Part shown: in pieces, positions 3,472 to 54,147 of the stretch | Layout of the letters: each line of letters starts with the position of its first letter | Position numbering within the stretch: position 1 is the stretch's first letter | Source of the DNA: Laetmonice hystrix | Lineage: Eukaryota | Direction of reading: 5' to 3' | DNA: 64,000 nt | Assembly (NCBI GenBank): GCA_965235115.1 | Contig: OZ249436.1 | Location: forward strand, 37,512,001-37,576,000 | Program-made: the position numbers and the translations under genes | Notes under the pieces: generated by a model | Database searches by the model: none | What the model was told of the DNA's origin: nothing | What the model saw: the letters and a program-made list of their open reading frames with translations, nothing else

Positions 3472-3574
3472 CATGGGCCACCCAGCCATGCTTGCAGCTG
3501 TCACAGGTGCGAAGGTGGGACTTTCCTGGGGAGAAGCATTCACAACGGCAGTTTGGGAGGGTGCACCGGATTGC
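3472..3574 (-). CDS. BNC2: Basonuclin (BNC1/BNC2/disconnected family) N-terminal Cys/His domain exon; gene continues left of the window
   Basis: Minus strand: (CTT)n-TGCAG acceptor, then 103 nt encoding [34 protein letters not shown]+1 nt, then GTAAGT donor. Matches the recalled human BNC2 motif [34 protein letters not shown]. In an invertebrate this is probably the single BNC1/2 co-ortholog. Not in the ORF track. Confidence 0.93.
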
Positions 3575-6500
3575 CTGCAAGAAGAAGAAGAAGAAATGTC
3601 AAAAAGCTCAGAGAAACAGAGCCTGACTTTCTAAGTAACACCAAGAACTGATACCAGAGTCAAGACGGACAAAATCCAAATGATGCAAATATTAAAAGTT
3701 GAAGGAAATCCTAAATATAAAGAATCTAAGGGCAGAGCCCTTCCATGAATACATTCAAGAAAAATAAGCCCAAAAATATTTGTTTTCTATAACTAACCAC
3801 CTTTATGAACTTTAACAATTTTCTATCATTTCTTTACTTTTTCTTCCGATTTCTTGCAGAAGTACATTCATTTCTTTTACAACTGTTGAAAAAGAAAGGA
3901 GGTGGGTACATTATATAAGTCATGCACCTGAAAAATGTGATCGGGCCTACATAATTGATCGGACCAACTCATTACACTGACCCAGCGGGGGAATAGCCTG
4001 CCGAGACCGCCACTCCCCTCCTCCTCGGCTCAACTTAAATCTTGTGTGCACTCAAGGAGAACAGGAACCAGTCATGTGACATTGCCATGGCGACAGTACA
4101 CACAAACAGGGCCTGACCTGATGACATCACAATGGCCGCCCTGCCGCTCACGCTGCAGGAGCCCACCCTTCCCGCCCGGTGACCTTCGGACTCAAGGTCA
4201 ACCTTAGTGTTTCTCCTGTGTTTTCTTCCAAACCGTGACCACAAAGATTAAGACACACTAATATTACATACAGTATGTGACGTAGTTACAGCAGACTCTA
4301 ATATAAAAGCCAATAGTTACGGATTTCTAATAATGGTGTGCAATTAGACGTACTTTATAGCTGGCTCCTATAATGACTGGCCAGAATCTATTACCTGAAT
4401 TCAACCAACACTGATTAAGGTTATAGGGAGTGGTGGGGCGGCTGGATCGGGGTGGACTTGGGAAGATGGACGGTTGTAGCCGAGGTGAGAGTGATGGCCT
4501 GAGGGGTGGGGGTGAGGGTTGGGGGGACGTCCACACCCCCTGCCGTCTTTAGTTGTCTTTATATTACCGCAATGATTCCTTGCTCTAAACTTTGCCAAGT
4601 TTCTGGCACTAGTTTCTTTGACACGGCGACTCTAGGCGGGCCTGCACGCATGCCACATCATCTCATGCTAGACTGATGATTAATGTCTCACAGCCAATTT
4701 TTATTCATTCCTCAACAGGTCAAACAACTCTGGGGGATTACAATAATCACGGGATCATTTGCCGACTATAAACTATAAAATTGTCCTTTTTTTAAATATA
4801 CTGTGCAGTCCCTAAGTAATTAGTATGTTGGTATGATTCTGATATCTAGTTAATCATGGAAAGGATAGTACTACTTCTGTTTTAATGTCCCTTGACAATT
4901 TCACATCACGTAATTACCAAACCCGTGAGAGGGCGGGCTTTTTTCTCTCTCGCTCTCTCTTTCAATTTTGAAGCAGACAGCGTGAGGACTCCTATGTGCA
5001 CCTGCACTGGATTCTACGGGGAAAAGCCCTGCTGGACAGGTGACAAGTTTCAAACATTAAACATTGATCAGATTAATTAAAATAAATCAATCGTCCTGAT
5101 CATTGGTCTGAATAAGTCATGGTGTTGTTTGCCACGCAGTGTTTCGTCCCACAGTGTGTGGCTCCCCCACGGCACAGCCAGCGAAGTCCCATTCATCAAC
5201 ATGGACAACTTTTTAGTTTCACATTTGAAAAAGAAAATCATTCTTTAGGTTGATCCAGAATTACAAATTCCATTTTAGGCATTTATTGTTATTTAGTAGA
5301 CACCTAGAATGTTGTCATTCTGATTGCCCCGTCACTATAACAGTATAAGGCTTATATATTATTATGTTTTACAGTAATTTATGATCTTCGTAAATTTCCC
5401 TACCAGTACGAATTTGAGGGTCTATTATCAGTCTTACTCCAAGAGTAATCATTCATGTTGACAGAATACGATACACTGTCGCCCTCAAAGTTCTACCAAG
5501 ACCTTCAATAACTCCTGTGACATCACTGAGTTTCAGGGACTTTCCAGCCCTTCAATCTTTTTTTCTTCTAAAATTAAAGTACTTTCCAGGACTTGCAAGG
5601 AGCATGCGAACACTTATGATTTGCATGTATAATATACATCTGAGAAGGGACATACCTGACATTACACACCCCTCTCAGACCCTTTTTACTATTACTAAGT
5701 GACTGAACAACTGATTTAGGCTTTATTCATGACGTCAAATACGTTGTCAGAGGATTCCATGGCGACTTTCTGGGAGGCGAGGTTGGTGTTTGTGTGCTAG
5801 CCGTGGATGGCGACGACGCCAGCCGTGCCCCCTCCCACCCTCCTACCCGATCCACTCCCGGCTTCCTCCAGCACCTTGGGACCCTGGAGACCAAGCTTAC
5901 AGGAGGTGATCACACCATCTCCCAATTATTAAAGTGTACCCAGCCAAAGTCGCCCTCACAATACACGTGCATGATTGGTACTGTGCTTGCGATTCATGTC
6001 AACACACCACAAGTACATGTCTCCTTGCCTGACACTAATAAGACCCAGTTTCTCTCTAAATGATGGCAAATACCTTAAACAGACTGTAAACTGCCTCCGT
6101 CATGGAAACCACAAGTAGACGCCAATTAGAGGCCACTCGTATAATATACAGTGAGAACATTCGTCACCTTCCATCTCTGGGACTATATAAATATATATCT
6201 ACATGGGGGTATATATACAACCCTCTGGTGTATTGTTATCAGTGCCGTAATGATGATCGCTGTTCGTGCCAATGCTATCATGTAGACATACCCTCTGACA
6301 ATAGTCGGCGTCTGTATGCTTTAATTCCATGCGGTAATGTTACATGATAGAACAAAGCGAGGCAACATAACGTATCACGGAATAGACTGACTTCTACCTC
6401 CTTTAATCAAATACTCTGAGCCAATACTTCTAGGGCTAAACATATTGTCCTTTATAATACTGAATTTTATTTCAATGTTGTTGTTTTTTTTATAGAAATC

Positions 6501-9500
6501 TAGTTAATGTAGACATATAAAATTTCCATTTTGAAGTCTATGTTATGTTATTATATAATACGTTTGTTTTTCACCATGTCATAAATCTACACTGGAGCTA
6601 AATGCGTTAATTATTTTTGCGGACATAATTTGCTGTACATAGGCCATCCTGGGTTCCATTCAAATCCATCGACCAAAATATTACATGCTGGAGTATAGTA
6701 TGACACAGACTTTTGGAGACAGCATAGAATATGTTAAAAGTGTCAGTCTAATGGCTATGTAATGCATTGTAATGACATTACCATACACGCCATTATCCTC
6801 CTTAGTGGTTCCCACACCATGGGGACTCTGCTGGATGCCACCCTCTATAAACCCCCTCCAGACACCCCCCACCCCCCATCATCGTACCCCCACCCCCTAC
6901 CCAAGGGGACGGTCCCTGCCTGATCCATCCACAATGATAATGATGATTAAACATGCCACTAGTTATATATGGCCAATGAGTCTGCCTCACATGCTACCAT
7001 GGCAACAGCCCAACCTAGGTATGAGCAGGCGATTGTATCATTGCAAACAGCACTCGGGCACAATGGAGTGACACGTTTTGACAATGGGTCGCTTCATCAA
7101 AGCCAAATAAACCACGCAAATGGTATCAACCACCCGTAGCGCTTCAAAGACCTGCCAATCTCAGCGGCCAATCACCTTATACACACGTCTCGTGAAACTG
7201 GTTTTAATTACAGAATCCTACTTCACCATATCTGTCTGGTCTAGCTTTTAACACTTCACATTATAGACATAGCACTTGATCAATTCAAATTTACGTGTTG
7301 TTAAAATGTAAAGATATCACAGCTGTTACTGGATGCACAACCACGATATGTATACATGCTCCTTAAGTTTAATGTATTTGATATAAAACTCTGATCCAAA
7401 TCAGGCTTACCGCAGGGAGGAATAGTTTAATAACATGTGAAGGTAAGTACAGTCTAGCCCTACCAGGAAAAAGTTGATGGCCTGTTTCAAATTTACTGCA
7501 ACCTATAGTACAGTGCCACTTCATTATAGTTGAGGATGGTAAAAAAATGTTGTCAATTAGGTTAAGGCAGCGGGGTAACGCCATCGAATGAGAATCAGAT
7601 AGAAATTATTAATATTCTTGTGCATGAGGTTCTGTGAAGTAGGTTAAACTTTTTAGTACGGTTTCTTCAGGAAGGCCTGCCTACCGCGGGTTACCGCTGG
7701 GGTTTTCTCTTTGCTTCCCCTAGTGGCACTTTATGAAAATGTCTAGAAGTACTGGGAATGAAGAATTAGGTTGGCAACCCGGAGCGTCCCCTCCTTGGGG
7801 TCTCTTTGGGGCCCGAGGGGTTCCTCTGGACATTGCCCTGCGGACAATTCAAATGGGATGCTGCAGTTTGATGGCTGCGGGAGTCACCGTGGTGACCAAA
7901 TACACAGTCCCCGTGGCTGCAGGAAATACCCCATAGATATGTATCTGAAGGTGCCTGCAGGTGGGGACATGGAAATAATGTCAGTACTGGGGGCTGGCTG
8001 TATACCTCTGGTGTGCACTTCCGCGACCACCTTACACCGTAGGGAGAAGTGATCGATGTAATGATACGGCCATGATACACTTCAAAATAGAGCTTACAAT
8101 AACACTGTATTATAGAATGTGACAGTAAACTGTTTTCAGTAAATGTTTCTGTAAGCTCACATTCATTTATAAGCTGATTCCTTCCTTTTAAAATGTTTGA
8201 GAAAATTGATAAAAAATGAAAGCTGTCTTACCATGAAGAATAATCAAATGATCTCTACAAATATGTGGTTATAGGCCTACCACCTTCCATCAATTTACAT
8301 CAAAACTTCCCTGAAGAGCTTTCTTTAACACACGGAAACTTTTAAACCCTCAATCAATTGAAGGTTTACATACGAATCCTTTCCGGGAAAGTTTTAATAG
8401 ATGTTTACGGTATTTTATGTCATCTATTATAACAATGGTTAAATACAGCACACCAAAATTTTGATACTAAAATTTTAGCGTAAAGACCGTAAAACCTCGA
8501 CTTGTGCCAATGAGGAAGTACCTGACCCTTTAAAATGGATAGTGGCAGAGCCAGGACTCATTGGGTTGGCCTTTACTCCCCACTTATTACCTGTACTTGT
8601 AATGTCCCGCTCACATGATATCATAAACATTATTGCTACTAATTTGGCCACTCACACGCCCTGCTACTGTACAGACCTGGCCAGTCTCCCTGCCTTATAA
8701 ACAATTCATGATATTCTAAAACACCCTGCATGGGCCAGTTTATGTTGTGATAAACTGCTCAATATTATCTATTGCAATCGCATAAAAACATTATTGCTAG
8801 TGTCTGTACTACCGGTACAGATAATGTACTAGAAACACAGCCTGGAGATACTGCATCAAAAAGTTTCTCACATTTCTTATTATTATCACGTACCATAAAA
8901 TTTTACATAATTCTAGAAGATAGCAATTATTTTTCTACTACTTTGAAACAAAACGCTTTTGTTCCTAAGGAAACACGGGAGATGCCATTGATACAATATT
9001 AAAGACCAAAATGAACTAAACCTCCTCTGTCTTTACGTTAATCAGGCAAGATATATTTCTGCTAACTCCTTGCGCCTGACGTATGTCTGGCTAATGCCAA
9101 GCATGCCACATTAATTCATTGAGGGTGAGGCTCGTCTCCACAGGCCATGATGTTCGGACAGCCACATACCACTAATTACATCATACCAGCGTCCCATGGG
9201 AAGACCTCAGCAACTTTGTTTTTATGCCACCCTTGCGAGAAAAAAAACAGCCATGAACATCTCTGGCATATGTGGCCAAACATGTATGATGCTCGCCATC
9301 ACAAATGGGATACTTGATTAAAACTTGGTCAATATGTTTCCCCCATTTTCCCCAGGCTCGTTCAATCACCAGAACGTCTTTGTGAGCCGCCGCCCGCCAG
9401 AGCGCGCTGCTCCGCTGACGCAGGCGCACTCCGGGGACTCATCATCGACCAATCAATACGCTTCACTAATCAACGTTCATGTCCTCGTGCAATCTGCGAC

Positions 9501-12500
9501 ACATGGCGGCTTTGCAATCACTAGCAGTGACCACCCACTAATTTCAACTCGCACCAATTTCTGTCCGCTGGAAAAATGTCACTTTAATTTAATTTTTCCA
9601 TTTTTACTTTCTCCAAAAGGAGGCACCTACACGACCCTATAAGATTTGTTTAGTGCTATTATGTTGTTCATGGTGGTATAATTCAAAAACTTTACAAAGA
9701 AGGAACATCTAAGTTCAATCGCGAATGGACTTTGTGACTGTTGACGAGAAACTGCAAGATAAACGGCGGGGACACATTCCTTGCGACAGAAAAAAATATC
9801 AGACCAGGGAAAGTAAGTTAAAAGTGCATACTTGAAAAAAAAGTCGCAAAAAAATAATAAGAAGAAGAAAAGTTTACAACCGGAGAATGAAACTGAGGTT
9901 ACTACATGAATCATATCAGAATTTTGAGTATTCACAGAATGCAAGAGGCGCTGTTGACTTTCGATCTGCATTTTGACCCGGCCTTAACCAAGAACACTCC
10001 AAGATAGATTGTCGATCAAACTTTGAAGGAGCTAATTCAAGCAGGTAATCAGCACGGCAGGAATATTTCTCATAATATCAGCTGGGCCAGGCAATCAGGA
10101 TAATTAATAATAGACAAGAAGTGACAATGAAGGCTGTATGGCTGTTGGCGTGTCCCCCTGCCAACTGTCGTTTCACCTGATTACCCCGCACAGAGTCTGA
10201 TTAATCTGCGAGAACAGGTGAGTTGATCACCTTAATGTGTTCGTCGTATGGGGGCAACGGCGCTGTTTGGACGGTTGGCTGCTCTGGGGACCGCGCGGGT
10301 GGGTGGGGGTTGGGGGTGGGTGGTGCTGGAAGCGGTAGAAAAGGGAGGTCTTCATGGCGGATCTTTAGATGTCATTGTTTGGGCCGGGGAGCGCAGTGGG
10401 GATTAAGGAGTTTGTGGCGATGGTTGGTTAGCTGGGCGCTGTGGGGGCGGGGGTGGGGCGGGACGTGGGGACTCTGAAATCCATACTTCAACGTTTGTCC
10501 ACGCACACACACGACCGTGCCTCAACACTTAATTAAAGGAAGAATGAATGAATGATGAGTGTTTATGACAAATCCAACAGTGACATGATTGGTGGTGATT
10601 CAGGGGACACCGCCCGAGTTGATCTCATTATTACATGTGTGCATAATCTTTTACTCCGTCTGGCACTGCCTGCTTATTGCCACCTGGCAATGACGGCCAA
10701 GGTGAGCGTAACCTTGTGGTCCCTGGGAACAGGTGGTCGGGTGGTGGCGACTAATAAATAGTTGACATGGTCACCTTAACGATAGAGGGACGTCCCTGCC
10801 TGTAGTACGTGCCCTCCCGACTCTATATACTACTTAGAAAACTGAGCACAAACTACTTATTGAGTGGGTGGAGACTATGTGATTACCGGCCTCGGTTGTC
10901 GCGTTAATAAAACTGGCGGTTTGGAGTGTTACATAGATCTATACCTTCGAACTCTTCTACTGTAGGGGATTATTTATGATCATGTATATCGGTATATGTG
11001 TAGGTTTATATAGACAGCTATAAACATTTAGTCTCAATGTAAATTCATCCTAACTTGTATTTATACTTAATTCCTGTAGAGATGCTGGTGTATATACTGA
11101 ACGGCAATGGAAACGCTGAAAATATAGCTCAAATATTTTATTGAAAGAAACAGTCAGATTTTATATTTAACAAGAAACCAGGCATGTCATCCTGGCTTGG
11201 GGTAATAGACTCAGAAAACAACATTTCTCTTCTCAACCAAAACACTTTGCACATCCTACGAGTGATAAAAATATACATTTGGACCCATGCGTTTTCATTG
11301 CCGTTCACTATATGCAAGGCTTGAACTGCTTGGACTGACGTCACCAAGTGTCTCGCCTACACTAACCGTGGGACGTACGTCAAGATAGTTGGGATTCTGA
11401 GTCTGTGACTAACATCCCTGGGGCTGACTGTCGAGGGTGTGGTATACCGGTATACAAAAACAACCCAGAGTCGGTGACTAACCGTACTGCTCAACTGCGT
11501 CAATGTCGTACTTTCACTATCAATAGAGTATGTGCAATGGGCGGGGGTAGGTGGGGTGGGTGGGTGGGGGGGGGGCTGACGTGTCATGGTCATGTCATGT
11601 GGTTATACGTAATAAAGAATGAGCACAAGGCACAAAGAATTGGAAAAGGCGACAATGTCCCGCTTCATGCCACTGCCCCGTTCATACCATTCAACAGGAC
11701 CGCTTCGCGAAACCTGTCCATTTCCCCAAATTATGACAGAAAAACAGAATATCGCATTATCCGTAAGATTTCTTGGTTAATTTCTTCTTAGTCGAGGGCA
11801 AGACGATAGGAGAAGTCTACCTTTCAAGCGGGGCTAATTATATGTAAATATCGGGGCGAAACGATTTTGCCAAGGACTTGTAACCTAAAATACTGCCGAT
11901 GACCCAAAATAACCTTCATAAATCAATCAACCATGAAATCCGTATTGTGGCAACTTCTATCGCCATTTTAACTTGTTGACTGATAAGATCCATTGATTCA
12001 TGTTTAAAATGGGACCTGTATTTCTACCCTCCCGAAAGAGCTGGAGAGTTGAGTTATTATATGACACGGGACGGCCTCTATACCACCAGCATGCCACAAA
12101 AGCTGACCGCATTGGTGTGACTGTCGTGCCACTATTGTGGAGCCAGATGAGCGCCCCTCACTGGGATGTCAATTGACATGCACACAACACCTGTCGCAGG
12201 TAGAGAAAGAGAGAGAGCGAGAGCTAAGGTCATCAACTCAGGACGATTGTCGCCAGATGACATACACACACATAGCCACTACCAGCACCTACCCTTTCAC
12301 GTATACGTCCAACACAAACACAACCCCCTCCCCCTCTCCAACGCTTTTAACACATGACCATGACCAACACAGTCCTCCGCCATCGTTCGACAACCCGATT
12401 AATTCCAGGAATGAACTCATGAAGATTGAATAAAAAGTTCTCAGTTATCTTACTGAACATCAAAACGACTACCTTATACATATCCGTGCAATTGTAATGC

Positions 12501-15500
12501 ATTTATGTAATTGATCGTTGCTATAGGCCTACCTACACCTTACAATCGCTACTCCCCAAACTTGAAACCAGCAGGAACTATAGTTCTGAGTGTTACATGT
12601 GTCATGAATAGTGTGACATGTGTCATATGCATGAGGTTAATGGTATCAGCAACCAGGTGCCACATGTTCACAAACTTCATAACTTTTATTATGTGAGACC
12701 GTGGTGTTTTCAATGCAAGCGCCTGTCGCAGACGCCACTGTATGGAATTGGTGGCACAAAGGGATACATGTATATAGGGGACTGCACTGATCCCTTTGTC
12801 TTCACAGATAACAAAACATGGATTTTTTATATTATATTTGAACGGTGACAAAAATAGAATGCATGGAAGGGGCTGTGTCACCTTATCGCACTTCTGCTAA
12901 TCTCTAGAACGGCTGTTACATATACTTGAATGTGACGTTTATCAACGTTATAGCATGTACGGTGACTGAGATCCAATTGAACACAGAATATGCACCGACG
13001 ATACAATCATAAAGCATGACATATTTTGATAGGAGATAATGATATTTTTATTAGAATTCGTGTTATAAAAAGGAGGGTTGGCTGTCAATACCTGATGGGA
13101 CCATGCCGTAAAATAGTAGGACACATTTCAACACATGTTGAGTGATTCAAAAGCGGGGGGGGGGGGTTATTGGACGGTTTCCCGACAGCAAAGGTTGTTG
13201 ATCTGGTGTATGTTTTCACCAGGAAAGAAGAAAACAATACATTATATTAAAATATGTTAGATGAATGATATTTTGTGTTCTATTCATGTTAACAACCAGC
13301 ATTGGATTCTAAATTAATTACATTTTCGGCCTTACTGTTGGTCAGGCTGTGAAGTCAATGACAAGCTATTCTCAATCTCATATCATCTGAAAATGTAGCC
13401 TAGGCCTATACTAAATTCTAATGGATTTAACATTTGTTACTTATTTATGCTACCGCATTTGCAACAAACAACTCAACTCAAATATAGGCCTCCCTATATC
13501 AAACAAGTTTACGCCTGATAAGCCTATTTCCTCTTCAGTTTTCCAAAGGATATTCCCAATTATTTCAAATATATTTAGTGTAATTTTACTGGCATCAAGG
13601 AAACATACAGGCCAAGCAAAAAGACCTCTACGGCAACACGCAATTTTCTTTAAAAAAAGCTTCATGGTCCCAGTCTTCGTGAACATCCTTCCAGCCTTCT
13701 CGTCAAACGAATACTGCTTAAGGAGCTTCCTCTAAACGAGCTCAAATGTGCTCAAACACATTTCGTCCAGGAGAAGATCTTTAGGGTACTTGTTATTTAC
13801 TTAAAGAAGAGTTTCCTTCACAACACTGAACAAAATCATAAGTCAACACACACTGAACCATTCTTTTCTTGCAGTGGACGGAGTAGAAATAACTAGGGAA
13901 ACTCTAAACGGAAGCACCTGAACGGGACCAGGATAATATCAAGATCATTTTCCAACTTGTCATCATTGATGGTACATAAGGTACCCTTTATAAAAGTGTT
14001 TCCTGCACCTATGAGGGAGCAAGATAAGATTGCCTTTTTCTGGGGTTTAAAGAGACAGTAGAGGAATAAATTGACCACTGCTGTCGACTTGCCCCATTGG
14101 GTTTGCCGTGATGGGTGACAACTAGCGGCATCTGTCTATCACCCTTGCCAATGTGATGCTGCGAACTGTCCCATCTGCCGAGAGCTACAGTCACTTTAAA
14201 CGCTTTAAGGGCCTGCCTCCCCTGTGGAATCAGGTAAAGAGCAGAGGGAACTAGAAACTTCATCACCAAAATGCATGGTCCTGGAGACTTAATTAAATTC
14301 CGGGAAGGACCCTTGACATGACTTGGCAGTGTTATTGGTCAGCGGAGACATTGGTTGGCAATAAGCAAATGGACGGTCACTGTAGATGCAGGGATGGGGA
14401 CATAGCGTCTGACCTCAGCGCGGCCAGCGCCCGACAAGTTGTGGATGGGGCTAGGACACACGATTGTGGTGTGTGTGTTGTGTGTGTGAGGGGCGCAAGC
14501 GTCCGCCACGCAGGGACTGGCCACTTCGGGTCACCTGACCTCCACCAAAACATTCTGGTTGGGTAACACGGAGGTCATGTGACCTCATCAGGACGTAATG
14601 ACTGGTCAATTTGTGGTCACGTGACCTGTGTCCTTTCTTCTGCCGCTAAGTTAATTGTGAAGCAGGATAATACATCACAATTCCAAAGCATTTACATCCC
14701 AGGCTGGCCAAAACCTGAATAAAACATAGCACGAGTGACAAACTTCTTAAGTCTGAGCAGACCTCTCTCCTCTGAGGGACATGCCTCCACGCAATGGGAT
14801 ATCGCTAAGTACAAAATTCATAGGCCTAGTTTAAATTCAAATGAAAGCGCGACTGCATAGAGAGGGCTTTTTGGCTTTGTTTTCTCATGATACACCTACT
14901 GTAGATCAACTTTCTTATGGCTGAAATTAATGAGAATCTTAAAATCACCACAATACGAATGAAAGTTCGCCAATAACATAATAGCAGATTTAAGCTGTCT
15001 GTTGCGTCTTTCCATTACAGTCCCTGCACATGCGGAATTGCTCCAGAAGTCAACGAATAATTGTTCTGGGGTCAACAAGCCACCCAATGACGTAGTCCAG
15101 AGCTGGCGCGGCAGAACCACATCTGCTGTCCACCATGTCGTCCGAGCCAGCTGAAAACGTCACAGGGACAACCCTGACAACCTTTCTGTGTGGGCCCCGT
15201 GCCCTTCCTGCCTGCGCCCTGCTTCGTTGTGCCCAACCTGACACAACCAGCCGCCTTCACAAGGGTCAAGTTGAGGTGTCGCCACTGTATTTCTGGATCG
15301 ACCATTGCCTATAGCACGGCGGGATGAAGAAGTGCCTCTATCAGTCAGTGTCAGGCCCTGGGGGCGTTGTCGACTCTCGACTGGTGTTTGTCAGCCCTGG
15401 ACAGTTTCGAGGAACCACTGGAGCACATGGCTGACACAAGTACCACCACTATAGACACCTACCCCCGACCGAACTGCTCCGGGCGTCTTCTCACTCGACT

Positions 15501-17197: not shown

Positions 17198-17385
17198 AGG
17201 GCCGGTCTGAGCCTCTGGTTGGTGATAACAGGACATCGAGCCACCCCTATAGGCTTGAATCCACAACGTGCTTTGTATGAGAAAACTTTGTAACTTGCTG
17301 CAAGACCGGTCGGGGTTTCCGGTTCCCTCCACCAGTAAAACTGAACGTCTCGATATGGCTTTGCCTGCCATGAGGCGTAAAACCC
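17198..17385 (+). mobile_element. Degenerate tRNA-derived SINE
   Basis: B-box-like GGCTTGAATCC, then GGTCGGGGTTTCCGGTTCCCTCCACCAGTAAAACTGAAC..CGATAT resembling the V-type SINE central domain; a related fragment at ~20670-20725 shares CTTGCTGCA..GGT..CCAGTAAAA. Confidence 0.55.
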
Positions 17386-17946
17386 TGCTCCCTATTCATC
17401 CAAGGTTGATCATTTCGTTTTTGATTGCGATCCTATTTTATAGTAATCGCCATCACCAAAACCCCAAAGAAGATTGAAGAAATGATATTCTTTTAATTTT
17501 CTGTCCATACAATGCTCCTTTATAAGGCCCAGTGATTTACCTGTTATATATTATTTAATTCTTTATTTAAAGATGCATGTTGATGTAAAACTAGAAGCTT
17601 AAGAAACTTGCACCAATTGTTACCATCTGCCGCGGCCTCGTCACTGTTCCTTATGAATGTTACATGACTTTAGTGGCAGTGGTCGAGCCCCATGGCCCCC
17701 CGCCCATCCTACCTATCTGTAGGCTGGCACCACTGGCTCCACAGAGCGCCACAGCGGTGGGGCAAATGGTCCGTAGAAAGCTTCGCAAGCAGTGACAGTG
17801 GAAGTTGAGGGACAGCGGGTTGTAGGCTATCCCGAACTCCTGACAGAATATAGGACAGCTAAGAGTTGGCCATCTTCCGACTTCCGTCTCACAATGGTAA
17901 CAGGCACGCTTACTCTCAACGCTCAGCATCCGTCACTTACATTTAA

Positions 17947-29530: not shown

Positions 29531-29599
<69 letters not shown>
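29531..29599. repeat. (GCA)23 trinucleotide repeat = (CUG)n in the basonuclin pre-mRNA
   Basis: 69-nt pure repeat about 0.8 kb into the basonuclin intron. Confidence 0.97.
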
Positions 29600-42900: not shown

Positions 42901-45900
42901 GGGATGCAGAATGTGGAGCTGGAGGAAGTGAAAGCAGCCCACAATCGTCGCCTTGAGAGACTGAAGGCTCTACAGGGCAACTACAGATTGTGTCGGAAAC
43001 AGCTCAAAACCCTGGAGGAGGAGGTTAATGGGTACGTGGTCATGAGGAGATTGTTCTTCTCAACTTTCTCTTTGTCTTATAACTAGTTGTTTTCCATATT
43101 TCCTTGCTTGAGCACCCCAACTCATAGATTGTTACCAGTAACTTTCTAGTTGTCCGTTCCGTAGACAGTATCTAGGATATATTGTGTCCATCTGAGTTCC
43201 TAGTTGTTACACCCATTCATATTCCACATTTAGGCCTGCCAAGAAGAAAAAGAAGTTGAAAAGGTCACATCCCAAATCACTGCAGAAGGAGGACAGTGAT
43301 GCAGTTTGGAATGAGCTGACCTACTTCAAAACAGAACATAAAAAACTCTTGGTGGAAAAGTAAGTTGTTGATTTTGACAAGTGACAAATGTAGACAGTAA
43401 AGAGTGAATAAAACACAATTGAATAGGGGACTGTTAATTTCAAGTCAGCGTACTTCAGTATCTCGGTGAGAGATCTTAGGTTTTTTGATATGTTGCTACA
43501 TTTTCTACATTTTGAAGTGTCGTAAAGGTCATTATAAGTGATATTGTCATTTGAAATGCCGTCCTCATAGAGCAGAGTGTCACCATTATGTATATGATCC
43601 CATTTTGTTCCTCAGCATGAACCTACAGGAGGAGGTGGACACACTAAAGGTACAGGCTGCCCAGGACGCGGCCACTGTCCATGAACTACGCACCTGTTTG
43701 GAGCAGGAGAAGGAAGGTGAGATCTCCAAATTATGGTAACTTACCCAAAAAAACAGGAAATTTACAACTAAAGGAAGGAGCGATGTATATATGTGTGAGA
43801 CCGAGACTCTGCCTTGTTTTGACCAGTTATACAATGCTATGGGATTATTTAATACCCTATATTGAATTGATGTATGTTGTGGTTCTGAAGTTGTAAAGCT
43901 CAAAAGTGGTACAACTAATTTTTTAAAGCGCAGGCATTTTGATGTTGCAGAGCTAGCTTTCCTGCTGGAGCAGCAGCGCTGTGCCTCTCCTGAGCCTGAT
44001 TCCCAACAGGAGCTGGAGGCTGCTGTGGCTGAGGCTGACGTTGCCCGTACTGAGGCTGACAATGCCCGACATGAGTCGGCCTCAGACCGGAGACTGCTGG
44101 ATGAGGTCAAGGCTAGGCTGCAGCAGGTGGAAAAAGACAAAAACATAGCGCTCAGAGAAAGGGATGCCTTGGTAGATGATAAGAGGTGAAGTTTATTCTT
44201 GGACAGATTGGGTCGAGGTATAAATCTAATGGTACTCAGATATATGTCAGTCATGAGGTAAAAATGAAATCAAAGAATCATGTTTTTTTTCAGCAAGTGC
44301 TGCATGATGTAAACTGATGCATCTGGAGATTTTGAAAAAGTGAAATTTATCTTTAATACTCCTGGTAGCAATATTGGTGAATCAAAATAATTTAATATTT
44401 AAAAAAATTGTAAATTCTTACAAATGAATAACCAGTACTGTGCCTGCTGTAGGACTTTGAAAAATGATGTGAATGGTCTAAAACAAGAAGTTGCTGACAG
44501 GCGGATAGAAATAGCAGATCTGAAACGTGATCTCCTACGGTAAGAAATGATGATCATTGTGATTCTATGTTGTGATTCTATGTTACACTGTAATGTTACC
44601 GCTGGTTTGAGAAAATCCTTAGAAAAAAATATCTGGAAATGTAACACTACTGGGTTATCATGACAGTTGTTTGAGCAGTTAAGTAGTTTCTTCAAATTAA
44701 TTTCATCAAAATGACTATTGTAGGAGTCATGATTGTAACAAGTACTGGTACTCATATTGTAGACTGCAGCGGGAGATGAAAAAACAAAAAAGGAAAGAAA
44801 AAGCACGGCCAACCTTGGCAAAGCAGGTTTGTTAGTTCATATAATCATAACAGCATTCTTCTATAACATATCAACTAAAACAGACCAACATGGTGGGGGG
44901 GGGGGGGGGGCTTCTTATTTCATTGTACAGTTGTGTACATTTGTTTTGTACTTTCAAAATAATTAGGTCATATTAGAGTCACACGTTCTATGGGCTCGCC
45001 TGCACTTCTGAAGTAAAGATATGCTTAGTTTAATAAATGATCTTAGGTGATAAGTAACTACTTTTATTTGAAATAATCTTTCAGTATCAGCGAGTGCTGA
45101 ACCGTTCCATCCAGACCATGTCGCATGTGTTTGATGACTTTGACAGAGATGGATGGGAGGAGGTGACAGAAACCAGGTAAGGACCGATGTCCAATATAAA
45201 GATTTCTGACTTCCACGTGGGTGGAGCAGGAAGTTGATTAGAAGTAGATGTCACCATGTCCTTAAAAGATTCCTGAAGAGAATCGGAGAAAAAAGTGCTG
45301 ATCATGTATTCATTGAAAATGTAATGTACAAATAGACACCGATACATACCCGTACTTTATATCTTATACCCGTACTTTATATCTTATACCCGTACTTTAT
45401 ATCTTATACCCGTACTTTATATCTTATACCCATACTTTATATCTTATACCCTTACTTTATATCTTATACCCGTACTTTATATCTCATACCCGTACTTTAT
45501 ATCTTATACCCGTACTTTATATCTTAAGTATTCATTGTGGTACCATTTAATTTGGTGAGCTGCAGCTTAGAGTAAAATAATTTAGAAGTTGTAACTAATG
45601 GATCTATTCTTTGAATCAGTATTTAAGTTCGCGTATACCTTGTCTCATTGATGATACTTTCTGCCAGTGGTACCCAGGACACGAGTAACCTAACAGTGAC
45701 GACGACCACCACCACAGATAGTCTGGGGGAGGCGATAGCTCAAACTGCCAGGGTCAACAGTCCACAGAGAAGGACCCATGCAAGTCAAGTCCTCAATTTT
45801 GTCCAACCTGATATGAAGTCCGTCCGAAATTTAAAAAGTGTCCCTGTAGATTTTTAAATTTCTTTTTCTTTTGTTACACTTTGACTGCACTAGGCATGAT

Positions 45901-48900
45901 GTTCTCTGAAAACCAATTGAATCCAGTTTTAGTCAGCCTTGAATACACTGAACTATATTATTGTCTTTCATTGATTAAACTTGATTTTGTGTGATAAAGC
46001 ATTTATATATTGATCAGGGTGAGTCTGAGGACAGATATGACTCTCCACGCCGTGACCGTCAAAATGAGTCTCCAGGTCGTGGCCGTGACCACGTGTCTCC
46101 GAGCCGTGACCGTCAAAATGAGTCTCCAGGTCATGGCCGTGACCACGTGTCTCCGAGCCGTGACCGTCCCCTCCGGCGGGACGTGGCCCTCTCACCCATC
46201 ACAGTCCAACACTCCAACACCAACTCTCCACACCAACAAGTTGCCAGCAGTCGACATGTGGTCAGCAAGAAAGCTGCTCCCAGTCCTGCTGGACGTCAAC
46301 TGATCACACTCCGTCAACGTATCACCAGCCTGCAGAAAGAGGTCCATCGGTTAATTTCCAAAATAATGATCCCTTTACACATCTATTTTATCCAATGAAT
46401 TATTCAGCCATAAAATTAGTAAGTTTCTGCTATAAATGTAGTGTGAGGCGTAGGTTTACCTACAGTACTGGCTTATGTAAAACGGAATAACAGGGGATAA
46501 CAGAAAAACATTGTTATTAGAATTCACGTACTGAGGTACATATTCTGGACTTATGGTTAGATAGGGTGGGCATAAACAAAACTTGTCTAACTTTAACGTT
46601 AAATATTTCAAAAACCCAACGTTTCTGAGAAGTTACAGGAGTAAACACTTTGATATTCTTATCATCTGTTGAAATTTTCAAGTTGATATCTCATAAAGTC
46701 CTTACATTCATGAGACCAAAATGAAAAGTGTGTCCAATTGACCATCGGTTCAAGTAAAACCAGGTAGCACTTTATTACAACTAATTCTGGAACAGCAACT
46801 TTTGAGGCACAAATTTAATTTTGGTCTCACATGTGTTCTTAATAGGTGTTTACTCTTGTATTGTGATTTTTTTTTAGATTTTAGATATTTAACGTCAGAG
46901 CTCGACAGGTTTTTTAGTGCCCATCCGATATATTATGATTTTTAAAATGGTCCTGCCAGAGGACAGATAACATGAATTGAATATATACGTTGTACTGACT
47001 GTTGGCAACTCTACGTACCAGGTGGCCATTCTGAAGGAAGCCAAGCAGTTTGCTGTGAAGCGAGAGACAGATCAGCGAGAGTCGCTACAGCAGGCTCAGG
47101 CTGACCTCCAACTGGCCAATCAACGGTTAGCCACAAACCGAGCTTCAGTACAGGTAAGAATTACCTGCAGTTTCTACCAATTTATTGCTGTCATCAAACT
47201 TTTATTTTCCTGACATGTTGTGAAACTACCATAACCCACTGAGATACACCATAATTTAAAAGAAATTTAAGAGCTTCCAGAGAGAAAAAGGCATAGAAAA
47301 AACGACTTTGTGTTTCCTATTGGCAGAGACTAACAGGAGAGTTAGAGAGGTTACGGGTTGCCAAGGATGACCTGGAAACGCGAGTGGACGCAGCCACCAT
47401 TGATGGAAGCACAGCTCCAGTGTGTACTGACCAAGAGTGGGTGTCACTACAGGCCAGGCTCAAGGTACGCAGAACTCTACACAGGTCCTAAATAATGTTA
47501 GCAGAATCGTTACAGTATGGGGACCTTGCCACTTAATCTATTTGGGATTTTGGAAAACTAAACGGGTGGAAGGGGGGGGGGAGATGGGCTGAAACTCTGG
47601 GTCAAGCCCTCTTAGATTTTCATGTACAATGTATGAAGTAATCCACTGCATACATCATTTAAGTCATTCTTCCCATGTTTTAGTTTCTGTTCGCTATTTT
47701 TTATTACACCAGTTACAAAATGACAAGCCTAAAGATTTATCTGGCGATATTGGTTTAAATAAAAAGTGTACACAATTTTATGTCATTAACGGATCACACA
47801 CAAAAATCATTTCACAAGGTATCAACGACTGAGCTATCCAAGCAGCTGACCCAAATCAAAGATCTAAAGGCCGAAAATAGCAGTCAGGCAGAAAAGATAG
47901 AAACGTTACAGACCAAGTAAGTTTTAAGGGTTTTTCTGCCTTTTCTCAACAGTGATTTGTGTGTGTAATTGTATGACTACTGGTTATTTCACCTTTTGAA
48001 TTTAAGACTCATGGTTCCCATGGGTCCCCTGGAAAACCGGAAAAAAAATGTAAAACTGGAAAAATCCTGTAAATTTTATATTAGAACCTCTGGGGCCGGA
48101 AAAAGTTTGAGAATTTTTTATAAATATGTGCTCCGGTCTGGAAAAAGTCTGGGAATTTAACGAACGGCTGATTCACAGTCAGGGTACCGTTCTTTAATCA
48201 TCATCGATATCCCTTGTGAAGACAAAAATGGAAGGAGACCTGAACATGGTCCTAGAAAAATGTCATAAAGATCTGGGAAAAGCCTGGGAATTTTGGAAAG
48301 CTGATAGCATGGGAACCATGTAGACTGACATTGCCTAGTTATGTAATACTTACCGCATATACATTGTTTTTGTGTCACCTTGAGAAAAGACTGTCAAAAT
48401 CCTATTACATTCTTCAAATCTAAAGTAGCAATAAAGCAGTGTAAATACACGGTAGTGATATGGTTTGCTTACCTTTGTCTCAAGATTAAACCATGTAGAA
48501 CGAGACCTCTCTCAGAAACGCCTCCTCGTGGATGATCTCCGAATCAAAGTCAAGGTTGCACAAGAGAGCGCCCAAACAGACACTGAAGTCATGGTAATGA
48601 AACAATGGAAAACTTTTATAATGAGGAAAAACTACAGAAAACTAGCCATGCCTGCTGTAGTAAACTTTATTATACATCACCAGTGCAGACTTGTAGAATC
48701 CCCATAACACTGCTGTTGAATTGTGTTTTTTTGAAGGGGTTCCCCAATAAGGAAACGTGTAGGAATAGTCATCTGAGCATTTAGAGGACCAATTGCGTTA
48801 AAATATGTACTTCCTTTTGTGCATTTCGAAGAGAATATTGACGTATCTGATGAAGGCCAACTTCATATGCTGAGTTTCTATTCCTTGCAGGTCGAGGCAG

Positions 48901-51900
48901 AAGACAAGTTAAAACAGCTGGCAGAGACAAATTCAAGGTTCAAAACACAGGTAGGCCTACCTTGGCTGTCATGAAACGTGAAAAAAATGCTGACGGCATG
49001 GTACCAATAACCGTACTTTTGTCACAAAATGATATAAAGGCATTTTAAGTCTGTAATAAATCTCCGTAAAATCCACCACTCAGGAGATTGAACCTGGCTG
49101 GTATAGAGCTGCACTGCATGTTGTTGGTTTATTTTTCATTGAAGCAACACAATTTGGTGAATAAGGTAGTTATTGGTATTTAAATGTTAACAACTGCCTT
49201 GTATCTGGTACATTCAGATGGAGTCCACCAGACAGAGAATTGCTGCAGTTTCAAGGGAAAAGCTCGAGAATGAGGACAAAGTCATTAGATTATCTCAGGA
49301 ACTGGAGAAAAAGGTTGTTTTTTAATTATCAATTTTAGCATCAAATCAGGATATGATAACTTGATTATTTTTTCTCTTTAAAACAAAATTGAGTGGCGGA
49401 CAGAAAGTAAACTACTGGTAGACATGAATTAGTTTAGAGATCTTTGCACTTGTCTTACATCTTTCGAGAAAGGATTTGTTTCATCGCCTTTGAATGATTT
49501 TAACACTTATTCAAAGGTTAAACTTTCCATGTGCAATTGATACGCTGAGAGTATTATATGACAGGAATGAGTAATCTTGCGATACTTCTGCCAAGCGCCT
49601 CACACCCTATCCAAGATCTGGAACTGTTTCCATTATTAAACTTTCTGCTCCAGAGTAAGCAGTTGTCAAATGCCCTGCGTAAGAACCGTGAGTTGGAGGC
49701 CGCCTTGACCCAATTTGAAAGGACAGCACAACAACAACTGTCTCGGCTGGCCTCTCAGAGTGAGACGGCCATGCTCAATGCTCACACCCAACTTCAGACC
49801 AGTACCAACAAGTTAGAGGAATTCAACAAATTTGTCAAGGTGCGGGTTTTCACCTGGGTTTGGTCGATTTTGTTTGATAAAATAAAAGGTTGCGATCCTT
49901 GTTCTTCTGTTATTGAAAAAAAAGTTCCACGACTTAGGAAACAATAATCTTACAAATCCAGGGGGAGGGGTTGTTTCTTGTTCCCTTTGAACATATTGTT
50001 TGCACCGTACAGCCCTCCTTGCCCCTCCCACCCATTGATCCGTTATATTTCTCATGATTGGCAGATTCTTGGCCACGCCCTCATCAACAGTATCCACCAG
50101 GCCCAGGCCCTGTTCCGCCAACAGACCTCCCATCGGAAGCAGCAGGCTGCCGACAGTCCTCGGTCAAAGCCGGACCCTGCCCTGGCCAAGGCCCAAAAAT
50201 TGGCTGCTGGAATCCTCAACCTGAGCCAGTCGGACCTCGAGGACCTCATGAGTGTGACAGGCAGCCCAGAGGTCACCAAGGACGAGGTAAGGGTAACGAC
50301 CACACATTACAGGGTTCCCAGCCACTCTGGAAATCGGGGGAAACCTGGAAAGTGAGGTTCCATTTTTCCAGTCAGAAAAAACAGAATTGGGGGAAAACAT
50401 TAAAAAAAAATCAGGAAATTTGGCAGTGCCCCAGAAGGGAAAAGTTTCCATCAGTTAATTAGCCCCCAAACCCATCGGGTTTTGGGGGCTGATGATTCAC
50501 CCTCTGTCCGTCCGTCCGTCCGTCCGTCCGTCCGTCCGTCCGTCCGTCCGTCCGTCCGTCCGTCCGTCCGTCCGTCCGTCCGTCCGTCCGTCCGTCCGTC
50601 CGTCCGTCCGTCCGTCCGTCCGTCCGTCCGTCCGTCCGTCCGTCCGTCCGTCCGTCCGTCCGTCCGTCCGTCCGTCCGTCCGTCCGTCCGTCCGTCCGTC
50701 CGTCCGTCCGTCCGTCCGTCCGTCCGTCCGTCCGTCCGTCCGTCCGTCCGTCCGTCCGTCCGTCCGTCCGTCCGTCCGTCCGTCCGTCCGTCCGTCCGTC
50801 CGTCCGTCCGTCCGTCCGTCCGTCCGTCCGTCCGTCCGTCCGTCCGTCCGTCCGTCCGTCCGTCCGTCCGTCCGTCCGTCCGTCCGTCCGTCCGTCCGTC
50901 CGTCCGTCCGTCCGTCCGTCCGTCCGTCCGTCCGTCCGTCCGTCCGTCCGTCCGTCCGTCCGTCCGTCCGTCCGTCCGTCCGTCCGTCCGTCCGTCCGTG
51001 AACAGCGATATCTCAGAAACGTGCGGAACAATCATTTTCATATTTGAACACAAGATCAGGTACCATCCTGGCATGATGCACGCCAAAAGATTTTTTGATA
51101 CAATACAAGATGGCCGCCTGGCAGCCATATTGGTGAAATACACATTTACAGCGATATCTCTGTTAAAAGAATACCATTTTCATTCAAACTTGGCACAACG
51201 ATAGGGGTTCATGAGGCAAACATACACGTCATTTTGTTTTCAGTTCGGATCCAATATGGCCGATCGGCAGCCATGTTTGTGTTGTTGGCAATGTCATTAG
51301 ACTTTAGTGGCGTATAACTTGACAATGGGGCGAGGTGTGGGTAAAGTTACTATGGGGAGCGAATAGGAAGTCATATATGAGGAATCTTTTGACACCATTA
51401 TATTTGACCTTGGGTTGACATTTCAAGGTCATTTGAGGTCAGGTGTTTATTAAGGATCACTATGTCAGAAATTGTGTTCTTCAAGTCCTTTAGTGCTACG
51501 ATGCATTATGCAGAGAGAGGCTTATATTACAATTCACCATGATCAAGATTTTGAAGAGTGCGTCCAAGATGGCCGCTCGACAGCCATATTGGCAAAATAG
51601 ACATATACAGGCATATCTCTGTTAAAAGAATACCATTTTCATTCAAACTTGGCACAACGATAGGGGTTCATGGGGCAAACATACACGTCATTTTGTTTTC
51701 AGTTCGGATCCAATATGGCCGATCGGCAGCCATGTTTGTGTTGTTGGCAATGTCATTAGACTTTAGTGGTGTATAACTTGACAATGAGGCGAGGTGTGGG
51801 TAAAGTTACTATGGGGAGCGAATAGGAAGTCATATATGAGGAATCTTTTGACACCATTATATTTGACCTTGGGTTGCCATTGTAAGGTCATTTGAGGTCA

Positions 51901-54147
51901 GGTGTTTATTAATGATCACTATGTCAGAAATGGTGTTCTTTAAGTCCTTTAGTGCTACGATGCATTATGCAAAGGGAGACTTATATTACAATTCACCATG
52001 ATTAAGATTTTGAAGAGTGCGTCCAAGATGACAGCCATATTGGCAAAATAGACATATACAGGCATATCTCTGTTAAAAGAATACCATTTTCATTCAAACT
52101 TGGCACAACGATAGGGGTTCATGGGGCAAACATACACGTCATTTTGTTTTCAGTTTGGATCCAATATGGCCGATCGGCAGCCATGTTTGTGTTGTTGGCA
52201 ATGTCATTAGACTTTAGTGGCGTATAACTTGACAATGGGGCGAGGTGTGGGTAAAGTTACTATGGGGAGCGAATAGGAAGTCATATATGAGGAATCTTTT
52301 GACACCATTATATTTGACCTTGGGTTGACATTTCAAGGTCATTTGAGGTCAGGTGTTATTTATAGATTAGGAAGTCATATAATTATGAAGTTTCATTTGG
52401 CGCCATTTTCCATGACCGTGAGCGACCTTGAAAGGTCAATCAAGGTCATGCATTTTTTCAATAGCCTGGATCTTCAAAACAGTTGAGGATGCAGGTCAAT
52501 GACATTTTTGACATCAGTCAAAATGGCCGTGTGGTGGCCATCTTGGATATAAACACATTTGGAGCAATACCTCAGACAAAACGATCCTGATGTCTTTAAA
52601 ATTTGGTGGAAAGAAGGTGCATATGAGGGGCAATGTGCGTGCCAATACATTGCCAGATCAGAGCAAATATGGCGGCATGGCGGCCATATTAATATCCCCC
52701 CCCCCCAATAACACTGTTTTGGCTCATATCTCGAAAACGGTGCAATATAAGGCAATAGTTACTATTATTGACAGATAGAAAGTCATATATGAAGTTTGAT
52801 TTGGCGCCATTTTCCATGACCTTGAGCGACCTTGAAAGGTCATGCATATTTTAATGGCCTGTACCTGCAAACCAGTTGAAGATAACAGCATCTAATCTTG
52901 CCTGAAACATTACATAATAACCAGGGACAGTCTATAGGGAGGACACAGGTCAAACATATCATTAAAAATGGCTGCTTCGTGGCCATCTTGGATATAAAGA
53001 AATTCGAAGCAATAACTCTGACATTTTCTGGATTTCGTTCTTGCTGACAGAAAGCATGAGGGGTAACAAGCGTGCCAAAAGTACACATAGTTCCTGGACC
53101 CACAGAAAATTTGTTCCTACTCAGTTGGGGGCTGTGACTCCGACGGGGTCTAGTTCAATTGGCGTGTGCATCTTAAGTGTACCGGTATCCTAAGTTGTAT
53201 CCACTAATTTGTAGAGTGGCTTTTTAGTGTTTATACAGTGTGAAGAATACACCTCTCCAGACCATTATAGTTGGCTCTGCTACCTATAAAACACAAAATA
53301 TTTCTCATGGCGTTTTGGAAATTTCTCAGGAAAAACTCAGGAATTTTGATTTTTACAAAACGCTGGGAACCCTGCATTAGAAACGGGGTGTTGTTAGATT
53401 TAACCTGAGCAGTGAACCACCAGTCTTTGTCAGAGTACGGTATGTCTTTGCAGATCTAAGACAAAGATATCTTGACCAGTGAAAAGACGATTACATGTAT
53501 CTGTAGCATTAAAGTTTTCATTTTTAGGAATCACCAAGGCTGGATTCTGACAAGAAAAATAAGAAATGGATCAAAAAGTTGGAAAAAATCCTCAGCACTA
53601 AGGTATGCAATTAACCGTTATTTTGTAAGGCACTCGTTTTTAAGGATTGCCAAATAAATAAAGTGTGTGACACTGTTTCGTGCAGTAAGGAATCTACACC
53701 AACAGATGGCGGTAGTAGTACGGTTGGCCATTGGCCTACTGGCGGCAACTGTAACAAAGACAGGTCTGTCTTGAAAAATATAATAAAAATATCGCATTAA
53801 ACCCCGGAGGCTTCAAACAGATGCATGTATCTCAATGCTACAAGTAATGTAATGATGAATTTTGTTTGTAATTCTCGCCTCGAGAGCTACCTCAGGTAGT
53901 CTGGTGGCAAAAGTTTCCCGTATCTTTCAAACTTTGTGGAGATCTTTAACGATGCCTTTGTATGATAAGACATCCCTTATATCGTGTGATGCTGCTTTTA
54001 AGCTATCTATACCTTTCAGCAGTTCTTGAATATGTGAAAGCTTTTATATTTCTTCCTTAGAAGGAGTTTGGCATGGCCCTGGTCGAACTCTTCATGGACA
54101 AAGTCGAAGAACGCAGTCAGCTAGCGGTAACCCTTAGCGCCATCTAG
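36937..54147 (+). CDS. CNTLN: Centlein, centrosomal coiled-coil protein; 34 coding exons, 3822 nt including stop, ~1273 aa
   Basis: Phase-consistent exons: 36937-36976, 37160-37224, 37419-37507, 37633-37761, 38453-38537, 38736-38781, 38940-39043, 39665-39721, 40554-40639, 40925-41034, 41433-41485, 41599-41682, 41864-41965, 42167-42267, 42440-42644, 42910-43031, 43234-43359, 43616-43716, 43951-44185, 44453-44539, 44763-44826, 45085-45176, 45668-45779 (donor uncertain, GC), 46018-46341, 47022-47153, 47327-47464, 47819-47916, 48485-48593, 48891-48950, 49218-49313, 49654-49839, 50065-50286, 53528-53602, 54061-54147 (TAG). Centlein hallmark peptides: CQADKEFVWSLWKRLQ, KDRKVLDIL, QQAHLIQQL, AHNRRLERLKALQ, EDSDAVWNELTYFK, AAGILNLSQSDLEDL. 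Start may be 16 aa longer if an upstream ATG|GT exon (36420-36422 or 36251-36253) splices to the acceptor at 36892. Confidence 0.93.
39157..39310. mobile_element. Foldback/MITE-like element: perfect 42-bp inverted repeats with a 70-nt spacer
   Basis: AATTGTGTTGGGATTAGCAGAAATTTCTAGGGATCCCGTCCA (39157-39198) and its exact reverse complement (39269-39310). Confidence 0.7.
40752..40802 (-). promoter_or_regulatory. Two tandem CTCF-like motifs in a CNTLN intron
   Basis: AGCGCCCCCTGGTGG (40752-40766; reverse complement CCACCAGGGGGCGCT = CTCF core consensus) and TTGCCCTCTGGTGGCCA (40786-40802), same orientation. Confidence 0.55.
45346..45525. repeat. 20-bp minisatellite x9 in a CNTLN intron
   Basis: Unit ATACCCGTACTTTATATCTT. 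Confidence 0.95.
46050..46168 (+). repeat. Exonic 54-bp tandem duplication in CNTLN (18-aa repeat)
   Basis: Two units (46050-46103, 46104-46157) differing at 1 nt, encoding RDRQNESPG(R/H)GRDHVSPS, plus a partial third unit. Confidence 0.92.
46562..46930. mobile_element. Degenerate Tc1/mariner-type MITE
   Basis: ~45-bp imperfect TIRs TAGGGTGGGCATAAACAAAACTTGTC..ACGTTAAATAT versus ATATTTAACGTC..GACAGGTTTTTTAGTGCCCATCCGATA; TA-flanked. Confidence 0.65.
48010..48320. mobile_element. MITE related to the CAGGGTTCCC family
   Basis: Perfect 13-bp TIRs CATGGTTCCCATG / CATGGGAACCATG; flanks AAGACT and TAGACT (imperfect 6-bp TSD); GGAAAA-rich interior. Confidence 0.75.
50506..50999. repeat. (GTCC)n microsatellite, ~123 perfect units
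   Basis: Uninterrupted tetranucleotide run; source of the SVRP/DGRT ORFs. Confidence 0.98.
51107..52360. repeat. ~459-bp tandem repeat, ~2.7 near-identical copies, inside the HINE
   Basis: Anchor CATTCAAACTTGGCACAACG at 51181, 51640 and 52091 (spacing 459 and 451; the third copy lacks 8 nt). Confidence 0.92.

Follow-up and report, generated by a model that had tools for sequence, protein, structure and literature searches.

A head-to-head basonuclin–centlein gene pair in a probable annelid supports an origin of the BNC2–CNTLN block in the protostome–deuterostome ancestor

The association of basonuclin (BNC) with centlein (CNTLN) as an ancient regulatory block is already catalogued and is not new. 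Table S1 of Touceda-Suarez et al. 2020 (PMC7530604) lists the pair as GRB 113 (BNC2=CNTLN), an ancient block for which a chordate ancestor is inferred, with a human gap of 264,223 bp and the backing of two non-vertebrate species under the code 30100; GRB 114 (BNC2=CCDC171) adds a second bystander, and BNC1, the ohnologue of BNC2, is described there as unlinked to CNTLN. The digit order of the codes is not given in the legend; whether the listed order or an alphabetical one is assumed, each of the two protostomes (Lottia included) scores 0. By eye, the third digit in that table seems the most filled after the first, and Saccoglossus is reported in the same study to share most pairs with amphioxus. 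The two non-vertebrates behind GRB 113 are probably amphioxus and Saccoglossus, and the published support in this table is apparently confined to deuterostomes. Robert et al. 2022 (PMC8851819) assign BNC2 and CNTLN of Xenopus and Chelonia to block 1643, termed 'Vertebrata novel', and Lottia BNC to block 76, in which CNTLN is absent from the rows listed. A vertebrate cluster of 43 ultraconserved elements (UCNEs) is allotted to BNC2;CNTLN (PMC3436827), and a human risk SNP is located ~200 kb upstream of the CNTLN start, at a distance of ~44 kb from that of BNC2 (PMC5059877). From these SNP distances we infer that the human BNC2 and CNTLN starts face a shared gap. At the level of the gene family, BNC has been equated with Disco, with paired zinc fingers and a single copy in Daphnia and C. 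elegans, and BNC1/2 of vertebrates and disco/disco-r of flies are considered independent duplications (PMC2889900). A word search of the main texts of PMC3514665 and PMC10735318 found neither gene named, and our literature search returned no protostome report of the pair, although supplementary tables might contain one.

Here we describe the pair in a genome that we read as annelid. The window, a stretch of 64,000 nucleotides (G000:C1:37512001-37576000), belongs to an assembly of 627 Mb in 35 contigs. We are highly confident that the arrangement is genuine and shares its ancestry with the human one, and its extension to an annelid and to molluscs appears to be new in the literature searched. 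The pair is one more among >100 catalogued ancient pairs, so that it should surprise a specialist moderately at most; its interest lies in moving a known block from deuterostomes or vertebrates back to the protostome–deuterostome ancestor, and in the fact that this block covers a human disease-risk interval at 9p22. The BNC gene lies mainly to the left of the window and has the following parts:

3472..3574, minus strand: Cys/His-rich conserved coding exon of BNC/disco, 103 nt, entered in phase 0 and left in phase 1
1..3471, minus strand: first part of the 27.6-kb BNC intron 2; the gene runs on left of the window
G000:C1:37487626-37487864, minus strand: second conserved BNC exon, 239 nt, left of the window
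G000:C1:37454480-37457416, minus strand: last coding exon of BNC, carrying the stop and the three C2H2 pairs, left of the window

The exon at 3574-3472 is bounded by AG and GT (acceptor score 8.0, donor score 5.6, with splice-site matrices derived from the CNTLN introns). Its 34-residue product matched 180 representatives at E<=0.001, with identities of up to 88%; it is the counterpart of the N-terminal exon in named basonuclin/disco proteins, and the genomic gene calls of the homologues begin and end at the same edges. The 239-nt exon and the last coding exon are separated by a 30.2-kb intron. Joined, the three exons give a 1092-codon frame without stops, in which six C2H2 finger positions form three pairs. 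The family features (N-terminal Cys/His-rich exon, following conserved exon, paired C2H2 fingers numbering 4-6) are all present. Pfam zf-C2H2 matches fall under the curated cut-offs, and the two short exons gave nothing above them. Among named proteins, the best matches are basonuclin-2-like ones from Lineus, Lingula, Liolophura and Octopus, and a tree of 30 rows places the protein among basonuclin/disco proteins. Each of the two BNC exons checked occurs once in the genome. BNC is thus an intact single-copy basonuclin/disco gene with paired fingers, like its relatives in Daphnia and C. elegans. The splice ends, the homologue matches and the two joining exons confirm the minus-strand exon of the original prediction, and the further exons with their stop-free frame rule out that 3472-3574 is an orphan fragment. 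The gene spans ~88 kb; no gene was found in the ~121 kb beyond its stop, after which comes the first coding exon of an HCN-type channel gene. The locus had been called compact, which holds for the intergenic gap and not for the rest. BNC had also been called invisible in the open-reading-frame track; this is true and trivial, as its 987-codon open frame sits ~55 kb outside the window.

The position of the BNC start is a matter of modelling, and three features concern it:

30418..30468, minus strand: candidate first coding exon of BNC as proposed earlier, 17 codons, phase-0 donor (score 6.4), no homologue support
31928..31984, minus strand: alternative candidate first coding exon, 19 codons, phase-0 donor (score 5.6)
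3575..30417, minus strand: predicted BNC intron 1, 26.8 kb, repeat-poor, GC 0.45-0.46, presupposing the candidate first exon 30418-30468

Between 3700 and 36900 there are seven ATGs followed by a strong phase-0 donor, all of similar quality. The candidate peptide at 30468 resembles none of 133 homologue N-termini; when five patterns (the candidate peptides and MKPLE) were compared with the same 133, only MKPLE matched, twice. A first exon with MKPLE is common in molluscs; a search of 264 kb here found one match, 3' of BNC, and none with a donor. The spacing of 6.5 kb between the two starts, given in the original prediction as if fixed, is a model, because the ATG at 30468 is one of seven candidates.

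The partner gene lies entirely within the window:

36892..54147, plus strand: centlein gene; acceptor at 36892, ATG at 36937, 34 coding exons, stop at 54147

Centlein is a protein of the proximal centriole and the centrosome linker. As predicted, the full gene is present on the plus strand: 34 coding exons encode 1273 residues without an internal stop, and 32/33 introns are GT-AG, the remaining one being modelled as GC-AG. The acceptor at 36892 implies an upstream non-coding exon. The first coding exon ends in S-L-D-G, as it does in a transcript-sized record of a relative. The gene is single-copy, judged from one exon, and occupies ~17 kb, its introns (short, AT-rich and repeat-bearing) totalling 13.4 kb with a median of 258 bp. 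The predicted protein matches protein P0122 exon by exon, with 58% overall; against most named centleins its identity is 30-41% over almost the full length. P0122 itself has centleins as its top three atlas matches, before CCDC171 and CEP128, with a recognition score under threshold; Pfam searches with eight CNTLN exons returned nothing above the curated cut-off. In a quick IQ-TREE analysis of 32 rows the protein falls among named centleins. Protein comparison and trees thus bear out the identities assigned to both genes.

The same trees bear on the host, which had been called an apparent invertebrate. CNTLN groups with Paralvinella and Dimorphilus at an SH-aLRT of 97-98, a grouping in which Dimorphilus has a long branch and from which Owenia falls outside; Paralvinella is also the best named CNTLN BLAST match. 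In the BNC tree, the protein belongs to a spiralian clade, separate from molluscs, nemerteans and Lingula. Taken together, the two trees suggest that the animal is an annelid.

The structures of both genes confirm the proposed head-to-head layout, with BNC on the minus strand and CNTLN on the plus strand. An exon scan between them detected no exon of an intervening gene and only two weak candidates, one of them within a repeat. The gap contains the following features:

30469..34641, no strand: single-copy intergenic stretch, except for a microsatellite near 30550-30610
33945-33955: YY1-like motif directed towards BNC, the sole one in the unique part of the gap
34642..36345, no strand: patchwork of dispersed repeats, including 34648-35959 and a CTCF-like site
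35901-35914: CTCF-like site within the repeat insertion 34648-35959

The single-copy stretch would likely hold the BNC promoter or promoters and possibly that of CNTLN. A CNTLN promoter at 35.8-36 kb was considered and dropped because that stretch is repeat DNA. Contigs from two of three DNA runs skip 34648-35959 at single-copy depth; this segment is probably a polymorphic insertion, and on the allele without it the gap measures ~5.2 kb. The pair tolerates this 1.3-kb insertion of repeat DNA between its genes, an observation that counts against the explanation favoured below. Only ~4.7 kb between the modelled starts is single-copy DNA. Compared with GRB 113, the locus has the same two adjacent genes, a developmental factor and a bystander, whereas the gap is about 5-6.5 kb as modelled here (about 6.5 kb on the assembled sequence), against 264 kb in human. 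Compared with human 9p22, starts that face a shared gap and very long BNC introns are similar, whereas CNTLN takes up only 17 kb here.

We read gene order in other animals indirectly, from contig size and from the order of accessions or locus tags, with orientation unseen in all spiralians counted. BNC and CNTLN are on contigs of the same size in 19/19 spiralian species in which both are named (18 molluscs and Lineus). The shared contig is merely 1-3 Mb in Ruditapes, Ylistrum and Mytilus coruscus, and in an older assembly of M. galloprovincialis both genes sit on one 215-kb scaffold. Accession order is not strictly positional. Among the 15 species from which both genes were retrieved, accessions or locus tags lie within 23 numbers in 10, all molluscs, four of them Mytilus congeners. 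They are consecutive in Ostrea edulis (XP_056021214-223 / 224-232), Mytilus edulis (XP_071168714 / 715-719), M. trossulus (XP_063434288-291 / 292-296) and Patella caerulea (SNE40_012513 / 012512), and close in M. galloprovincialis (XP_076103915-918 / 920-922), Gigantopelta, Haliotis cracherodii, M. californianus, Ylistrum and Ruditapes. The numbers are distant in the other 5/15 (Lineus ~700, Liolophura ~840, Dreissena ~1600, Mercenaria in a different series, and Pinctada), which may reflect numbering or true separation. Saccostrea was excluded from the count, as its two genes came from different species, and Octopus, Lingula, Tubulanus, Owenia, Paralvinella, Aplysia and others are uncounted, having one gene only in the lists of the best 120 matches. 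Beyond spiralians, the two genes have consecutive identifiers in the sea star Patiria (LOC119740263/264, supplement rows of PMC13317027) and in Xenopus (XP_002935714/715, supplement rows of PMC8851819), and one orthogroup table has centlein without basonuclin for Nematostella.

The presence of the pair in this annelid, in molluscs by accession order, and in Patiria supports its origin in the common ancestor of protostomes and deuterostomes, and with it the claim that the linkage is older than the split between vertebrates and invertebrates. Block 1643 is dated to vertebrates (PMC8851819), whereas its two genes are adjacent here. Recurrence in bivalves, gastropods, a sea star and vertebrates makes it extremely unlikely that the genes met by chance in this lineage or were joined by an assembly artefact. 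Such a reading could draw on the unseen orientation in molluscs and on the fact that no single DNA-run contig spans the whole gap; however, each of the 30 bins of 24000-43999 is covered by DNA-run contigs, and the odds of a spacing of 6.5 kb with the right orientation are ~4e-5 by arithmetic even for two genes on the same 73.8-Mb chromosome. Over the same interval the three runs behave as DNA: introns are covered, and none of the 15 joints listed, out of 31, is spliced.

Other neighbours have dispersed. PSIP1/LEDGF and endophilin, which we take to be neighbours in human 9p22, are unlinked or distant here, LEDGF being on another contig (C2) and the nearest BAR (endophilin) match 15 Mb from the pair. 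MRPS30 lies 11 Mb away, and the closest forkhead match 4 Mb; in Lottia, MRPS30 and FOXB share one block with BNC (PMC8851819). CCDC171, the second bystander of GRB 114, was not found beside BNC in 280 kb on its 3' side; this is a weak absence from a home-made exon scan, which recovered 30 CNTLN exons, though these were its own training data. A wider conserved block was rejected: that scan did not detect CCDC171, and LEDGF, BAR, MRPS30 and forkhead have no match nearby. The dispersal of LEDGF, BAR, MRPS30 and forkhead indicates that BNC and CNTLN were kept together specifically.

The two genes differ sharply in base composition. Within BNC introns, locally recurring repeats make up 0-2.4% (4-8% in the left flank), tandem repeats 0.8-2.4% (6-14%), and GC is 0.45-0.48 (0.42-0.43); repeats were measured by local self-comparison within 464 kb plus tandem repeats, which is not a genome-wide mask. 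Together with ~4 kb upstream, these introns form a distinct repeat-poor zone (GC 0.45-0.49) with an edge at ~34.6 kb, as would be expected of constrained regulatory territory. The comparison of this zone with the short, AT-rich introns of CNTLN suggests that the regulatory load lies on the BNC side, with CNTLN at its edge. Of the features expected of a regulatory block, the locus has a developmental factor whose microsynteny with an unrelated neighbour is deep (by accession order in the other species) and a large repeat-poor non-coding territory around BNC; a bystander with long introns is absent, as the CNTLN introns are too short, unlike those of a typical bystander that hosts enhancers. CpG o/e is 0.50-0.51 in CNTLN; a value of ~0.5 would suit a housekeeping gene with a methylated gene body. 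In BNC introns it is 0.62-0.67, below the flanks (0.82-0.86). This depletion is the opposite of an unmethylated developmental domain and does not fit the explanation that we favour.

That explanation, which we consider probable with considerable room for doubt, is that constraint by the BNC regulatory domain has retained an inherited pair of bilaterian age. BNC would be a developmental transcription factor owning a large non-coding domain, which would comprise three introns of 27-30 kb and ~4 kb of upstream DNA, with probably some of the 3' gap as well. CNTLN, a centrosome gene that is compact and of housekeeping type, would close off the domain at the 5' end of BNC. Breaks would be selected against because a few kb plus the 5' part of CNTLN would hold, tightly packed, the promoters of BNC with its upstream elements, the promoter of CNTLN and probably the domain boundary. 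The selection, the enhancers, the boundary and the separate expression of the two genes are all predicted elements of this account. We infer maintenance in cis, as the original prediction did, though neither of the forms it named fits well. Shared regulation is unsupported: deletion of 5 kb of intergenic DNA in human cells halved BNC2 and left CNTLN unchanged (PMC5059877), which agrees with the independent expression expected of target and bystander in a regulatory block. Enhancers interleaved in the bystander fit poorly with the small total and median size of the CNTLN introns.

Co-regulation from a bidirectional promoter near 34 kb is likewise improbable. The head-to-head layout, the YY1-like motif at 33945-33955 directed towards BNC, and a CNTLN first exon that must lie upstream of 36892 would suit it. 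Pairs with bidirectional promoters have starts within about 1 kb of each other. In human, ~250 kb separates the two starts and deleting the intergenic DNA changes BNC2 alone (PMC5059877), BNC2–CNTLN is filed under GRBs and not in the co-regulated head-to-head set of PMC7530604, and composition changes sharply from BNC to CNTLN.

Alternatively, the pair could be ancient yet passively kept, the gap being short and filled with two promoters so that few harmless breakpoints exist, with BNC not depending on the CNTLN locus. We regard this as possible, if unlikely. The ~4.7 kb of single-copy DNA and the small CNTLN introns agree with it, as does the survival of 460-524 pairs between human and Lottia (PMC7530604). 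The human pair, however, is intact across a gap of 264 kb (PMC7530604), the other neighbours in the present genome have dispersed, and only 11 collinear blocks are common to two annelids (bioRxiv 10.64898/2026.05.18.725834). A bystander with almost no intron space makes the locus a clean case for separating enhancers, a boundary and a short gap as causes.

The place of a boundary was approached through motif matches, with CTCF-like sites scored against a CTCF consensus. The sites of interest within CNTLN are:

40753..40799, minus strand: two CTCF-like sites in the same orientation, with 0 and 1 mismatch, in single-copy CNTLN intron 9
53699..53712, plus strand: CTCF-like site with 1 mismatch, in the last CNTLN intron

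The window contains 7 CTCF-like matches (0.73 expected), one of them exonic and one repeat-borne. The boundary signal in CNTLN is weak because the motif is enriched region-wide (21 matches in 464 kb, ~4.5 expected) and the excess of non-exonic sites in the gene (3 against 0.78 expected; 3/26 bins hold >=3) reaches only P=0.045, post hoc. Four YY1-like motifs in CNTLN were discounted, all lying inside the repeat-filled intron 32. In annelids, TADs are reported to be TE-depleted and enriched in developmental genes, with boundary motifs that are YY1-like and species-specific and CTCF unmentioned in the main text (bioRxiv 10.64898/2026.05.18.725834). A review singles out a CTCF motif as the commonest one in the open chromatin of Dimorphilus (PMC10658182), and echinoderm boundaries are described as CTCF-enriched without orientation rules (PMC13317027). 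The pair in intron 9 suggests, weakly, a boundary. It is rather unlikely that CNTLN is a boundary host instead of an enhancer host, held beside BNC since the bilaterian ancestor by insulator sites that close the BNC domain; the putative insulators would be those at 40753-40799, facing BNC, and at 53699. If true, the regulatory block would take a 'boundary bystander' form, addressable in a 285-bp intron. Further CTCF-like clusters sit close to the two ends of the HCN gene and, left of the window, at a distance of 94-114 kb; the other edge of the domain would lie at the latter.

The body of BNC is set apart by its base composition. In all BNC introns, including the inferred first one (window 3575-30417), GC content is high and CpG o/e is low (0.62-0.67 vs 0.82-0.86 in the left flank), which would not be expected of a developmental gene. 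The candidate BNC first exon is flanked by a (CTG)n tract (window 29500-29600) and a CT/GA microsatellite (30550-30610). In the gap between BNC and CNTLN, a 1.3-kb nested repeat (window 34648-35959) is skipped by contigs in two of three DNA runs, and is therefore probably a polymorphic insertion.

On the 3' side of BNC, the first gene identified encodes an HCN/Ih-type channel and shares BNC's strand:

L025:151-1140 (a stretch with its own numbering, as are L017, L019 and L036), plus exons further left, to ~G000:C1:37.24 Mb; minus; HCN/Ih-type channel gene (Ion_trans_N, E=2e-25)

In human, MRPS30 is a neighbour of HCN1. For Lottia, a published survey places MRPS30 and BNC in one shared block (PMC8851819). 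Given these two associations, BNC, HCN and MRPS30 may be what is left of a more ancient gene neighbourhood. Beyond the HCN gene lie several exons that by eye resemble immunoglobulin domains (L036:1486-1788, minus, and nearby), close to a cluster of four CTCF-like sites.

Within CNTLN, a GC donor gives the best model for one intron (window 45779-45780); weak GT donor alternatives leave the phase unchanged. Intron 32 (window 50287-53527) spans 3.2 kb and contains a (CCGT)n tract of roughly 490 bp, as well as units repeated in tandem, in which four YY1-like motifs occur.

Right of CNTLN, a GC-richer, promoter-like patch (window 56780-56860), unassigned to any gene, contains a palindrome resembling an RFX X-box. 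The first recognisable gene found on this side is the MICU-like EF-hand gene. In L019, a Toll-like gene adjoins two transporter copies:

L017:8938-9876; minus; EF-hand protein similar to the MICU proteins of mitochondrial calcium uptake (Atlas scores 0.89-0.92)
L019:1579-2631; plus; single-exon EamA-type transporter, with a near-identical second single-exon copy 3.5 kb further
L019:6175-8547; minus; single-exon Toll-like LRR-TIR gene

Elsewhere in the genome, forkhead genes form large tandem arrays of near-identical members on three contigs, and some copies of the C18 array carry in-frame stops:

G000:C5:13.98-14.02 Mb; forkhead array, 9 hits
G000:C18:21.43-21.48 Mb; forkhead array, about 16 hits
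G000:C20:1.21-1.23 Mb; forkhead array, 6 hits
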